Shown in pieces: positions 9,000 through 30,542 of a stretch of 32,000 bases of DNA. This stretch comes from Vibrio alginolyticus NBRC 15630 = ATCC 17749 (lineage in GTDB: Bacteria; Pseudomonadota; Gammaproteobacteria; Enterobacterales; Vibrionaceae): positions 390,001 to 422,000 of the forward strand of contig NC_022349.1 in the NCBI RefSeq assembly GCF_000354175.2, read 5' to 3'. Position 1 is the first letter of the stretch. Each line of letters starts with the position of its first letter. Position numbers and translations under genes: made by a program. The notes under the pieces are model-generated. The model was not told the DNA's origin. It saw only the letters and a list, made by a program, of their open reading frames with translations, and did not search any database.

Positions 9000-9011
9000 A
9001 TTGTATCCAAT
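9000..9011. promoter_or_regulatory. Operator-like palindrome copy ATTGTATCCAAT upstream of the GntR gene (possible autoregulation)
   Basis: One mismatch to ATTGTATACAAT. It lies 23 nt upstream of the GntR start. On the gene strand it reads TACAAT (-10-like). Confidence 0.5.
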
Positions 9012-9080
9012 CCATTTTACTTTAGTAGTTTATTGTTTTTCTGGCACAAACCAACTAGGAAAGAAGGTTTTGAGAAGTAG

Positions 9081-9113
9081 AGTGAAATAAAAGGCATCAG
9101 TTGATGCCTTTTT
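9081..9113 (-). terminator. Rho-independent terminator after the aldehyde dehydrogenase gene
   Basis: AAAAGGCATC-AGTT-GATGCCTTTTT. On the minus strand the stem is followed by TTTTATTT. Confidence 0.7.
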
Positions 9114-9129
9114 GAGCCATTTGGTGATT

Positions 9130-10665
9130 TTATTGGGACACACTGCCATCTATGGCGCGTTGAATACCCAGTGGATTCGACGCTTTTAATGAATCCGGCA
9201 ATAAAGATTCTGGTAAAGCTTGATAAGCGACGGGACGCAACCAACGATGAATAGCCTCTGCCCCGACAGATGTTGAGGCAGAATTGGTTGAAGCCGGATA
9301 GGGTCCACCATGAACCATAGCGTAACCAACCTCGACGCCAGTTGGCCAACCGTTGAATACAAGGCGTCCGGCGATTTCTTCCAAACTTGGAAGCAGTTGC
9401 TTGGCTTGTTCTTCGTCTTCAGCGGTAGCGTGAAGGGTTGCGGTGAGCGAGCCAGTCAGTGAATCACTCAGTTTCAACATGTCATCGAAATCTTCACAGA
9501 TTACGATCAACGATTGAGGACCGAATATTTCTTCTTCCCATTGCGGGTTTTTACGCCAGTTTTTACTGTCCGTCACGAACAGTGCTGGTGCGACATTGGT
9601 CACTTCTGCTTGTTCAGAACGAGTTACGTTAATGCCTGTTTCGGAAGCTCGCTTATCCACTTCGGATTCATACGTTTCTCGGATTCCTTGCGTTAGCAAA
9701 GTGGCCGTTGATTGTTGTCGAATTAACCCTTGAGCGATTTCGATAAAGGCTTGCGTTTCTGGGCTATTCAAGACAAATACAACGCCTGGTTTTGTACAAA
9801 ATTGTCCACAGCCCAAAGTCATAGAAGCCACAAACTCTTCAGCCAATGAGGCGTTTGCTCGTATGGCTGAAGGGAGAATAAATGTTGGATTAATAGCCCC
9901 TAGTTCACCATAGAAGGGGATTGGCTCTGGTCTTTGCTGAGCTAGATTGAACAGCGCACGGCCACCACCGACGGAACCTGTAAACCCAACCCCTTTAATT
10001 TTTGGATGGGTAACGAGTGCTTGGCCAAGTGCGCGTTTGTTGCCTTGCAATAGCGTGAAGATGGCTTGCGGTAAGCACTCTTTCTCAAGTGCAGCCTCAA
10101 TACACTCTGCAACAAGTTGACTGGTGCCAGGGTGGGCGGTATGGCCTTTTACAATCACAGGACAGCCAGCTGCCAGTGCCGAAGCCGTATCACCACCTGC
10201 CGTAGAAAATGCGAGCGGAAAATTAGACGCACCAAACACGGCGACAGGGCCAATTGCGATTTGCTGACGACGAATATCTGGTTTCGGCAGTGGTTGACGG
10301 TCTGGGTTTGGCGTATCGAAAATTGCTTGATGGTGATTACCCGAGCTCACAACCTCGGCAAATAGTCTTAATTGGCTCGCTGTACGTCCTATTTCACCGC
10401 TTAAACGTGCTTCGGGAAGGGCAGTTTCTAAATGAGCACGAGCAACGATTTCTTCACTCTTCACTTCCAATTCAGAGGCGATAGAGCAAAGTAAGCTCGC
10501 TCGCTTTGCATTGCTTAGTTGGCGAAACTCACGCGCAACGTTTTGGGCGGCTGAGGCGGCTTGATTAACTTCTTGCTCTCCATGTACCGGAAACGCAATA
10601 GGTAGAGGCTCACCAGTAAAGGCGTTGACTGCGTAAAAAGTGGTTGGTTCTTGTGGGTTCATCAT
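9130..10665 (-). CDS. Aldehyde dehydrogenase, likely alpha-ketoglutaric semialdehyde (2,5-dioxovalerate) dehydrogenase
   Basis: ALDH superfamily with catalytic Cys in GQFCTKPG and Glu in [18 protein letters not shown]. It sits 18 nt downstream of the Hyp epimerase gene. Confidence 0.8.
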
Positions 10666-10683
10666 TCTTCCTTACTATCCTTA

Positions 10684-28720: not shown

Positions 28721-28768
28721 GATCCATCATCCTTTGGTCGTCCGAAATCACTTCGAACGGTTATGAAT

Positions 28769-28795
28769 AAAAAAATGGCCTGAGCTCAGGTTGCC
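28769..28795 (-). terminator. Possible partial terminator/attenuator between oppA and oppB
   Basis: The minus strand reads GGCAACCTGAGCTCAGGCC followed by ATTTTTTT. The stem is short and imperfect. Confidence 0.35.
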
Positions 28796-28865
28796 TTCTC
28801 CACCGAGAGATATGAGGAACGACAAGTAAACATTGAACTTGCCGACTCAGACCGAAAACATGCTT

Positions 28866-30476
28866 TTAGTGGGCTTTCACATAGACATTCTTGCGGTAGT
28901 ACGACGACTCAGGGTTTGTCAGTTCGTAGCCGCCCACATAAGGCTTGATGAGGTATTGATCGTTACCCGGACGATAAATAGGAATAATGGCCATGTCTTC
29001 AATCAGCATGCTTTCTGCTTGTAAATACAGTTCTGATGGGTTGCTCATGGTCTTTGAGCGAGCCATTAACTCGTCGTATTGCGGGTTGTTATAACGAGAA
29101 TCGTTGTACTCGCCACTAGAAACGAAGATATCCAACCATGTAGAGGCTTCATTGTAGTCGGCCGTCCAGCCGCCGCGAGTAATGTCGGTCGGCTCTTTAA
29201 GTGCGTAGAACACTTTCGGTTCTAGCTGTTTTATCGTGACTTGCGCACCCAATCGGCTTTTCCACATGCCTGCCATGGTGGTTGCCATTTTTACGTCCAT
29301 CGAGAAAGTTGGTACGGTAAACGTTAACTTAAGCGGATTGCTTTTATCGTATCCAGCTTCTGACAGTAATTGCTGCGCTTTTTCGATACGTTTATGGCGG
29401 TTCCAAGTTGCGAACTCAGGAGTGTGAGATTTAAAACCATCTGTTTGAGGTGGCACAAGGGTATACATTGGAACCCCACCGTTTCTCAAAATAGCACTCG
29501 TTAACAGTTGACGGTCAATGGCATATGAGAGGGCTTTACGAACCCGCACGTCTTTTGTTGGCCCTTGTTGAGTGTTGAGGTAATAGAATGTGGAGCCAAG
29601 AGACGCACTGGTGCTTGCCACTTCTTGTGGGCGTTGTTGAATTAACTTTTTCTTCTGAGCGGCAGGAATGGAAACCGCTTGGTCTATCTCACCAGCTAGG
29701 TAGCGGTTTAGCACTACGTTTGCATCACCAATTGGTAGCCAGGTGACTTTTTCCAGCACTACATTGCTTGCGTCCCAATAATGTGGATTTTTAACCATCA
29801 CCAGTTTTTCGTTAACTTTCCATTCAGAGACAGTAAACGCACCATTTGTAACGATATGCTCAGGCTGGGTCCAACGGTTGCCATGTTTTTCAATGGTCGC
29901 TTTATGAACGGGGGCAAGCACTGGATGACTTAATAGTTTCGTAAAGAAGGGAATAGGCTCTTCGAGTGTTACCTGGAACGTTTTTTCATCCAGCGCCTTC
30001 ACGCCCAAGGACTCGGGTGCGGCGTCGCCTTTCATAATGGCTTGCGAGTTTTCGATATTTGGAATGGCCGCAAACCAAGCGTAGGGTGAAGCAGTGCTTG
30101 GATTCAGTAAGCGTTGCCAGCTGTAGACAAAATCTTGTGCAGTGACCGTTTCGCCATTTGACCATTTTGCATCACGTAAGTGGAAGGTATAAACCGTATT
30201 GTTGTCATTGACTGACCAAGACTCAGCAACACCAGGAATGGTTTTACCTTGCTTATCTTGAATGACCAGACCTTCAAACAGGTCTCGACCGAGATTGAAA
30301 GCGGGCTCTGCGGCTTGCTTGGCTGGGTCAATAGAAGTAACTTCAGCCCCATTGTTTAGCGTAATTTCTTGTGTCTCATCGAGGGTCACACTTACGGGAT
30401 ACGGCGCGGCATAGCTTGATGTTGCCAGTATTGGACTCATCATCGACGCTAATAAAAGCAACTTAGGTAATTTCAT
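28866..30476 (-). CDS. oppA: Oligopeptide ABC transporter periplasmic binding protein OppA (SBP family 5)
   Basis: Signal peptide MKLPKLLLLASMMSPILATSSYA. Strong resemblance to E. coli OppA as recalled (RDLFEGL, PGVAESW, FHLRDAKWSNGETVTAQDFVYSWQR, NPSTASPYA). Confidence 0.9.
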   Translation of the reverse strand: MKLPKLLLLASMMSPILATSSYAAPYPVSVTLDETQEITLNNGAEVTSIDPAKQAAEPAFNLGRDLFEGLVIQDKQGKTIPGVAESWSVNDNNTVYTFHLRDAKWSNGETVTAQDFVYSWQRLLNPSTASPYAWFAAIPNIENSQAIMKGDAAPESLGVKALDEKTFQVTLEEPIPFFTKLLSHPVLAPVHKATIEKHGNRWTQPEHIVTNGAFTVSEWKVNEKLVMVKNPHYWDASNVVLEKVTWLPIGDANVVLNRYLAGEIDQAVSIPAAQKKKLIQQRPQEVASTSASLGSTFYYLNTQQGPTKDVRVRKALSYAIDRQLLTSAILRNGGVPMYTLVPPQTDGFKSHTPEFATWNRHKRIEKAQQLLSEAGYDKSNPLKLTFTVPTFSMDVKMATTMAGMWKSRLGAQVTIKQLEPKVFYALKEPTDITRGGWTADYNEASTWLDIFVSSGEYNDSRYNNPQYDELMARSKTMSNPSELYLQAESMLIEDMAIIPIYRPGNDQYLIKPYVGGYELTNPESSYYRKNVYVKAH

Positions 30477-30519
30477 CCTTGTCTCACTCTTTTCATCCTG
30501 AAAGATGCCAAAAATGTAT

Positions 30520-30542
30520 ATTGTATAAATTGTCTACACAAT
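30520..30542. promoter_or_regulatory. Tandem/overlapping operator-like sites upstream of oppA (ATTGTATAAATT and ATTGTCTACACAAT)
   Basis: The first site has two mismatches to ATTGTATACAAT and reads TACAAT on the oppA strand, 44 nt from the ATG. The second shares the ATTGT/ACAAT arms with a 4-nt instead of 2-nt centre. Confidence 0.45.

Follow-up and report, generated by a model that had tools for sequence, protein, structure and literature searches.

HypR, a regulator of hydroxyproline (Hyp) catabolism, was first proposed for Shewanella in 2011 (Rodionov et al., PMC3223726), and its regulon was described in 2016 by comparative genomics of 46 proteobacterial genomes, with hypR, hypD, hypE, hypO and hypH as core members and autoregulation in 32 of the 46 (Leyn et al., RegPrecise, PMC5343134). 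Vibrio parahaemolyticus was the sole Vibrionales genome with HypR in that study, its members including a COG2423 gene, a PotD-type binding protein and the hypothetical VP1327; the COG2423 (OCD-family) gene was treated as a possible ornithine cyclodeaminase, and the regulons of Shewanella, other Alteromonadales and Aeromonas added ampP, prolidase, di/tripeptide permease and collagenases (PMC5343134). Sinorhizobium meliloti HypR is, in the secondary account that PMC5343134 gives of White et al. 2012, a Hyp-responsive repressor. Here we analysed 32,000 nt of Vibrio alginolyticus NBRC 15630 = ATCC 17749 (NC_022349.1, 390,001-422,000, forward strand; hereafter the window, whose coordinates we use throughout), in which a first-pass annotation had noticed that a 12-bp palindrome, ATTGTATACAAT, recurs at five promoter regions. 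The palindrome is very probably the operator of HypR, a GntR/FCD regulator, presumably a repressor, encoded within the window at 8303-8977, as judged from its placement and its conservation across genomes.

The palindrome and its conservation

Searching the whole window for ATTGTATACAAT with up to two mismatches returned five matches, beginning at 9000, 11751, 13069, 15332 and 30520, and no others, which reproduces the positions and mismatch counts of the first-pass annotation (Table 1). All five lie in intergenic DNA, which makes up 9.2% of the window, and each is 23-106 bp 5′ of a start codon. The AT or AA previously reported on the 5′ side of the copies is correct, and across species the flanks lengthen the motif to approximately GTAT-ATTGTATACAAT-ATAC, as derived from unbiased flanking positions. 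A symmetrised 20-bp weight matrix was built from 59 distinct sites in 22 Vibrio loci, with the window's own locus left out. The five sites were the top scorers (Table 1), and the next-best score anywhere in the window was 2.0 bits; the number of sites of at least 14 bits expected by chance per window was 0.07 in a first-order Markov simulation and 0.017 with intergenic composition. The matrix scan of the window also agreed with the earlier statement that no copy lies 5′ of the S41, M20, MFS/LysR or rlmF genes. It gave no HypR site 5′ of the M9 collagenase gene, which is placed between the hyp and opp clusters and whose upstream region (20159-20460) had a best score below 0 bits, and the V. parahaemolyticus collagenase gene was not preceded by a HypR site either.

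We surveyed 25 Vibrio loci (507 kb) at a threshold of at least 14 bits. Sites numbered 98, and 95 of them fell at six expected promoter positions: hypR (23), the divergent hypE/hypO region (20), oppA (19), hypD (16, with two cut by the locus end) and the binding-protein gene or, in loci that lack it, the OCD gene (17, three of them at OCD). The remaining three lay elsewhere and were borderline, at 14.0-14.5 bits. Footprinting at orthologous positions, a check that the first-pass annotation had proposed, found the sites at the same promoters across the 25 loci, and with three of the 98 off target in 507 kb of Vibrio DNA the motif was neither at background frequency nor unconserved. In 22 other Vibrio genomes, whose HypR is 85-95% identical, the core was invariant and the adjacent intergenic DNA had diverged. 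The hypR site was present in 23/23 Vibrio loci in the form ATTG[G/A]ATA[C/A]AAT, the hypE/hypO operator was found in 20 loci at 72-74 bp before hypE, and the hypD-site sequence, ATTGCATACAATATACA, was nearly invariant in 14.

Outside Vibrio, in other gammaproteobacterial orders, hypR orthologues with 50-65% identity have the same palindrome close by, between hypO and hypE or hypD; the genera are Hahella, Balneatrix, Pokkaliibacter, Thalassotalea, Colwellia and Rheinheimera. Because it recurs beside hypR orthologues across orders, the motif follows the regulator. The orthologue set comprised 80 fetched loci in which the regulator gene stands beside hyp genes, and hypR clusters with hypE, hypO, hypD and hypH in the window and in the Vibrio, Hahella, Balneatrix, Thalassotalea, Colwellia and Rheinheimera loci. 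Across hypR the window is 100% identical to Vibrio diabolicus. Its HypR, 94% identical to the V. harveyi counterpart, has an N-terminal GntR winged helix-turn-helix (PF00392, residues 13-72, E = 1e-17, 63.9 bits against a cut-off of 27) and a C-terminal FCD domain (PF07729, residues 82-205, E = 3.8e-24, 85.9 bits against a cut-off of 24.3), and its closest solved structures in the PDB are GntR/FCD regulators. NCBIfam holds no HypR-specific model; the best match was phnR_burk, at 99 bits far under its cut-off.

The core TTGT-AT-ACAA, kept in the 59 distinct sites, matches the operator form TnGT-N(2-3)-ACnA and, together with the GntR and FCD domains, fits the FadR-type operator that had been claimed for this motif. 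The wider claim that a GntR regulator reads the palindrome is likewise supported in silico by comparative evidence, namely the conserved positions and the co-occurrence with hypR. Autoregulation, also claimed earlier, is plausible from the sequence, given the site before hypR in every Vibrio locus that has the gene and an intrinsic-terminator-like hairpin that separates hypR from hypH. That hairpin (−13.8 kcal/mol, z = −4.2, with 0 of 200 shuffles equally stable) is kept in several Vibrio loci. Its position between hypH and hypR implies that hypR and the gene behind it, h254, which encodes a putative helix-turn-helix (HTH) regulator, have their own promoter, the one with the 16-bit operator.

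The oppABCDF-ampP operon

The first-pass annotation had also proposed that the regulator couples an oligopeptide-permease and aminopeptidase operon to Hyp catabolism, and the comparative data bear this out: the oppA site persists in three arrangements of the operon, next to hypR, 21 kb away from it and unlinked to it. In 17 Vibrio species oppABCDF-ampP lies directly downstream of hypR-h254, with an invariant ATTTTATACAATATACAT before oppA. In the Harveyi clade opp-ampP is about 21 kb from hypR and adjoins the collagenase gene, and the oppA site is kept at the same distance, scoring 14.6 bits in the window, 14.6 in V. parahaemolyticus and 18.4 in a third genome. Hahella sp. CCB-MM4 has opp-ampP and hypR on separate contigs, and there the oppA site is a perfect palindrome (28.1 bits); the sites of the Balneatrix orthologue and of Photobacterium atrarenae scored 28.2 and 21.7 bits. 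Gene order is conserved. The window's OppA shares only 44-46% identity with the housekeeping OppA of Vibrio, and orthologues with 54% identity or more are confined to Vibrio, Hahella, Photobacterium and Balneatrix; by these identities it is a specialised paralogue. Membership of oppABCDF-ampP in the HypR regulon is, in silico, well supported.

The neighbourhood of the operon varies. In V. brasiliensis, V. bivalvicida, V. europaeus, V. sinaloensis and V. atypicus, hypR-h254-oppABCDF-ampP stand together with HypR sites at hypR and oppA, and the hyp catabolic genes are several kb off or absent within 10 kb of hypR. From these five species, the tightest physical link of Vibrio hypR is to the peptide-import operon rather than to the genes of catabolism. 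In the window and in V. parahaemolyticus the collagenase gene adjoins opp-ampP; a gene for an M66/TagA-type peptidase takes the place of the collagenase gene in the third Harveyi-clade genome.

The window's oppA site scores lowest of the five, with two mismatches and a degenerate left arm (AATTTA); the scan recognised no sigma-70-like promoter at this site, and the opp-ampP operon of the Harveyi clade has come to lie apart from hypR. The four hyp sites might accordingly be the real HypR operators and this one a decaying remnant without regulatory effect. We consider such decay unlikely, since the right arm and its flank, TATACAATATACAT, are invariant in 22/22 genomes examined, three Harveyi-clade species retain the site, and the sites are strong where opp is unlinked to hypR or belongs to another genus. 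Control of oppABCDF-ampP by HypR through this site remains our preferred interpretation.

An ATTGT-N4-ACAAT variant had been listed alongside the oppA site. The variant is present, but an operator role for it did not hold up. It overlaps the degenerate left arm of the main oppA site and a possible −35 element (TTGTGT, oppA strand); its arms are conserved in three Harveyi-clade genomes only, around a centre that varies (GTAG, GCAG and CTGA, oppA strand), and just TTG is kept at this position in other Vibrio species. We rejected it as a second operator on its score of 0.8 bits and the absence of its arms outside the Harveyi clade. Half-sites set 2 bp further apart would presumably not suit the same dimer either. 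It is probably not a second operator, although it might be a clade-specific auxiliary half-site.

Promoter context, TGTTAA repeats and h254

A sigma-70 scan predicted a hypE promoter, TTGAAA-17-TATATT (11774-11746, minus strand, 10/12 match), and a promoter for the binding-protein gene, TTAATA-17-TATATT (13057-13085, plus strand, 9/12 match). In both, the 12-bp core occupies the last 11 spacer positions and the first base of the −10 element, and the conserved ATAT/ATAC flank is probably the −10 itself. Given this placement, which is classical for repressors that act in this way, a bound HypR dimer would block RNA polymerase by occlusion, its core lying in the −35/−10 spacer and touching the −10. 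Hydroxyproline or a catabolite would then bind the FCD domain and release HypR, by analogy with S. meliloti HypR. Through five operators, HypR would control six units: hypR-h254, hypE-hypH, hypO, the binding-protein and Δ1-pyrroline-2-carboxylate (Pyr2C) reductase genes, hypD with the ABC transporter, and oppABCDF-ampP. Together these units would import collagen-type peptides and free hydroxyproline, release Hyp and proline (Pro), and convert Hyp to α-ketoglutarate. In the proposed sequence of events, the M9 collagenase cuts collagen, the Opp paralogue imports the peptides, the Xaa-Pro aminopeptidase frees Hyp and Pro, and the Hyp pathway yields α-ketoglutarate, so that HypR would gate peptide import and every step after it. 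The operators of hypR and oppA, which at 16.0 and 14.6 bits are weaker than the others (25-26 bits), may allow basal expression of regulator and importer and hence sensing of the substrate. Observed here are the sites, where they lie, that they are conserved and that they co-occur with hypR; binding, the sign of regulation, the inducer and any graded response are inferred.

Several points weigh against HypR as the protein that reads these sites. The raw count of 12-mers is weak alone, at five against 1.69 expected, with five or more in 7 of 100 shuffles; position and conservation, not site count, carry the evidence and are decisive. The matrix was trained on orthologous sites and is therefore not evolutionarily independent of the window, and the background frequency was estimated from 0.5 Mb of Vibrio and 0.9 Mb of other DNA. 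The promoter scan gave no sigma-70-like match of at least 9/12 at oppA, where manual candidates such as TTGTGT-17-TACATT were weak, and no predicted promoter overlapping the hypD or hypR operators. The ATAT/ATAC flank and the inner TACAAT/TAAAAT resemble −10 hexamers, and part of the motif's conservation may be that of a promoter rather than an operator. The S. meliloti HypR and the RegPrecise HypR set were likened to the Vibrio protein by description, not by sequence, and our literature searches found no experimental study of Vibrio HypR or of the genes VP1325-VP1328.

Taken to its end, the resemblance to promoters would make the motif mainly a core-promoter signature, a −10 or extended −10 with an AT-rich spacer, that was spread by duplication of promoter modules and has no dedicated regulator. 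Hexamers resembling a −10 also stand at its edge (TATATT/TATACA), it sits in the spacer and −10 of the two predicted promoters, and in unidirectional promoters its downstream flank (ATACAT) is far better conserved than its upstream flank. A −10 element, however, would not need the conservation seen in both arms of the dyad, which extends to G at position 4 and C at position 9. The distance from motif to start codon varies from 20 to 128 bp, the motif occurs only beside hyp and opp genes in the 507 kb and with hypR across orders, and its form is that of FadR-subfamily operators. This explanation is, in our view, highly improbable, and HypR binding accounts for the motif better.

The gene behind hypR, h254, follows it in 22/23 Vibrio hypR loci and is probably co-transcribed with it. 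Its product matched no Pfam or NCBIfam family, and a search of 5.8 billion proteins gave 47 homologue clusters, the named ones from Vibrio, Photobacterium and Hahella. In the AlphaFold model (mean pLDDT 78.7) the N-terminal HTH domain is XRE/Cro-like, and a second domain, of helices and strands, may be read as winged-helix-like. Closer homologues always have one of these gene sets as neighbours: in Vibrio hypR and opp-ampP, in Hahella and Photobacterium atrarenae opp-ampP, and in P. swingsii an M9 collagenase gene; distant ones (36-47% identity) are found in unrelated contexts. XRE proteins usually bind palindromes, and with its XRE-like domain and constant place behind hypR, h254 might be thought to bind this one, with HypR recognising something else, but such an assignment to h254 or another regulator of the locus deserves very little credence: in genera other than Vibrio no h254 turned up in the 10 kb to either side of hypR, the palindrome lies beside hypR in Thalassotalea, Colwellia, Rheinheimera, Balneatrix and Pokkaliibacter loci that do not contain h254, known homologues come only from Vibrio, Photobacterium, Hahella and a few run or metagenome contigs, no palindrome of at least 9 bits occurs in 20 kb at the P. 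swingsii copy, which adjoins a collagenase gene, and the palindrome has the form bound by the FadR subfamily. The gene h254 may correspond to VP1327, the hypothetical HypR-regulon member of PMC5343134.

The palindrome assigned to HypR is not the only conserved element at these promoters. Next to three of the five HypR operators stands a tandem repeat, TGTTAA-N5-TGTTAA, whose period is 11 bp (Table 1), and these three are the only tandems with at most one mismatch in the window, for a chance estimate of about 0.25. Across the 25 Vibrio loci, 52 of 56 such tandems lay within 60 bp of a HypR site, and none of 35 non-Vibrio HypR sites had one. A two-mismatch tandem is found at 20336-20352, upstream of the window's collagenase gene, and a one-mismatch tandem stands at the same relative position in V. 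parahaemolyticus. A repeat of this build would suit a winged-helix response regulator or a tandem-HTH protein as binder. Of the "single-regulator" signature seen by the first-pass annotation, the single palindrome family stands, but as a description of control it is probably incomplete, because the second element is present at three of the five sites.

Control by two regulators, in which a second protein acting at the TGTTAA repeats operates beside HypR and h254 is the best candidate partner, is a tentative proposal that we regard as doubtful on present data. The distribution in Vibrio fits a pairing of the tandem with h254, whereas the data from Hahella and Photobacterium do not: the intergenic regions beside their h254 homologues held no TGTTAA tandem at up to two mismatches. 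Were the proposal true, h254 would found a new family of regulators of collagen utilisation and would tie collagenase secretion to peptide import and Hyp catabolism, with HypR gating the intracellular steps only.

A further conserved palindrome, TCTCA-N5-TGAG, lies at 30591-30605 (GGTCTCAGTTTCTGAGACC in many species), some 70 bp upstream of the HypR operator of oppA. It was also present in 20 other loci, in V. parahaemolyticus, in the third Harveyi-clade genome and in Hahella, and it persists both where h254 and where the M20 peptidase gene lies upstream. Photobacterium atrarenae has a copy 5′ of ampP (locus 3643-3795), with a TGTTAA-like element and without a HypR site. This palindrome may be another operator.

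Gene content and comparison with known systems

The locus is an island for the utilisation of collagen, peptides and hydroxyproline (Table 1).

Table 1 Features of the V. alginolyticus window. Bits are weight-matrix scores; mismatches are to ATTGTATACAAT; Pyr4H2C, Δ1-pyrroline-4-hydroxy-2-carboxylate.
Feature	Position	Strand	Details
Predicted HypR operator before hypR	8996-9015 (core 9000-9011)		ATTGTATCCAAT; 1 mismatch; 23 bp to ATG; 16.0 bits
Predicted HypR operator, divergent hypE/hypO	11747-11766 (core 11751-11762)		perfect palindrome; 0 mismatches; 26.2 bits
Predicted HypR operator before Pot-type binding-protein gene	13065-13084 (core 13069-13080)		ATTGTATAAAAT; 1 mismatch; 26.1 bits
Predicted HypR operator before hypD	15328-15347 (core 15332-15343)		ATTGCATACAAT; 1 mismatch; 23 bp to ATG; 24.8 bits
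Predicted HypR operator before oppA	30516-30535 (core 30520-30531)		ATTGTATAAATT; 2 mismatches; on the oppA strand AATTTATACAAT then ATACAT; 44 bp to ATG; 14.6 bits
ATTGT-N4-ACAAT variant	30529-30542		ATTGTCTACACAAT; 0.8 bits
TGTTAA-N5-TGTAAA tandem	11730-11746	+	4 bp from hypE/hypO operator
TGTTAA-N5-TTTTAA tandem	13095-13111	+	adjoins binding-protein operator
TGTTAC-N5-TGTTAA tandem	30549-30565	−	upstream of oppA operator
Intrinsic-terminator-like hairpin between hypH and hypR	9089-9112	−	AAAAAGGCAUCAACUGAUGCCUUUU + AUUU
h254, putative HTH regulator	7508-8272	−	254 aa; 31 bp downstream of hypR
hypR, GntR regulator of FadR/FCD subfamily	8303-8977	−	224 aa from ATG at 8977
hypE-hypH operon	9130-11685	−	
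hypH, aldehyde dehydrogenase, presumably α-ketoglutarate semialdehyde dehydrogenase (function from context)	9130-10665	−	Pfam Aldedh
hypE, 4-hydroxyproline epimerase	10684-11685	−	NCBIfam NF010578 equivalog, 603 bits (cut-off 376)
hypO, FAD-dependent D-hydroxyproline/D-amino-acid dehydrogenase homologue	11777-13051	+	Pfam DAO, 2.5e-58
Pot-type solute-binding protein	13175-14248	+	Pfam SBP_bac_8
Δ1-pyrroline-2-carboxylate/Δ1-piperideine-2-carboxylate reductase	14332-15309	+	NCBIfam NF004793, 440 bits (cut-off 322)
hypD, DHDPS-like, presumed Pyr4H2C deaminase	15366-16280	+	Pfam DHDPS
ABC transporter ATPase and two permeases	16354-17475; 17472-18752, 18755-19603	+	Pfam ABC_tran/TOBE_2, BPD_transp_1
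Secreted M9 collagenase	20461-22905	+	
oppABCDF-ampP operon (OppA paralogue, permeases, ATPases, M24B Xaa-Pro aminopeptidase)	23066-30476	−	Pfam
PepT-like M20 peptidase	30741-31847	−	

The match of hypO to an NCBIfam D-amino acid dehydrogenase subfamily was under its cut-off. For the COG2423 gene at 14332-15309, of the OCD family, the NCBIfam equivalog is a bifunctional reductase of Pyr2C and Δ1-piperideine-2-carboxylate, not ornithine cyclodeaminase; as far as this match goes, it points to trans-3-hydroxyproline or D-proline metabolism rather than ornithine degradation. The longest open reading frame of ampP (23066-24982) has a TTG start and overlaps oppF by about 120 nt. Its true start is probably near 24862, judging by the orthologues called at 598-600 aa in V. 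parahaemolyticus, the third Harveyi-clade genome and Hahella.

Two further hairpins were seen. One, terminator-like, at 15307-15322, directly precedes the hypD operator. The other is small and conserved, at about 13123-13150 in the 5′ leader of the binding-protein gene; it reads GGUGUCC-aacagccguacuc-GGAUGCC in the window and GAUGCCU-aacagcgguaucc-AGGCGUC in four other loci, an apparent covariation around a conserved loop, AACAGCNGUAYYC, for which RNAalifold gave just a 6-bp stem at −3.6 kcal/mol. An Rfam scan of the whole window returned no family at the gathering score, so the conserved leader and intergenic elements are not a known RNA.

These results offer a coherent map, open to testing, of how collagen use is regulated in one marine Vibrio from the Harveyi clade. 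New in it are the addition of oppABCDF-ampP to the predicted and conserved targets of HypR in Vibrionaceae and Hahella, and the correction of the N4 variant to a probable non-operator; the TGTTAA repeats and the h254 family are more open leads, and the parts that a specialist would not expect.

Set against known systems, the motif has the form of the operators of the FadR subfamily. FadR, LldR, PdhR and GlcC act as dimers at a short TnGT-N(2-3)-ACnA dyad that overlaps the promoter, and a metabolite relieves their repression. Regulators of this subfamily share the winged helix-turn-helix and an all-helical FCD domain and differ in effector and target pathway; here the core is TTGT-AT-ACAA with AT-rich extensions. 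The same catabolic pathway is governed in Pseudomonas aeruginosa by LhpR, an AraC-type activator of the route through Hyp epimerase, D-Hyp dehydrogenase, Pyr4H2C deaminase and α-ketoglutarate semialdehyde dehydrogenase. LhpR belongs to a non-orthologous family, works as an activator instead of a repressor and binds at an unrelated site. Closer in kind is S. meliloti HypR, the member of the group that has been studied by experiment, which the secondary account describes as a GntR repressor of hydroxyproline transport and catabolism with hydroxyproline as inducer; this alphaproteobacterium has a HypMNPQ-type transporter and, unlike the Vibrio locus, no peptide-import operon.

The nearest counterpart is the published HypR regulon, which, like the window, has a GntR gene beside hypE, hypO, hypD and hypH, a palindromic operator and, usually, autoregulation. 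The two differ at the collagenase, the Vibrio M9 gene having no HypR site whereas several Shewanella collagenases are predicted HypR targets. Most of the regulon described here has already been published in silico (PMC5343134, PMC3223726), and membership of opp-ampP is a modest extension of it: the published member table contains no opp genes and the text of that paper gives ampP to Alteromonadales and Aeromonas taxa, not to Vibrio, whereas here 20 or more Vibrio genomes, as well as Hahella, Balneatrix and Photobacterium, have a conserved operator at opp-ampP.

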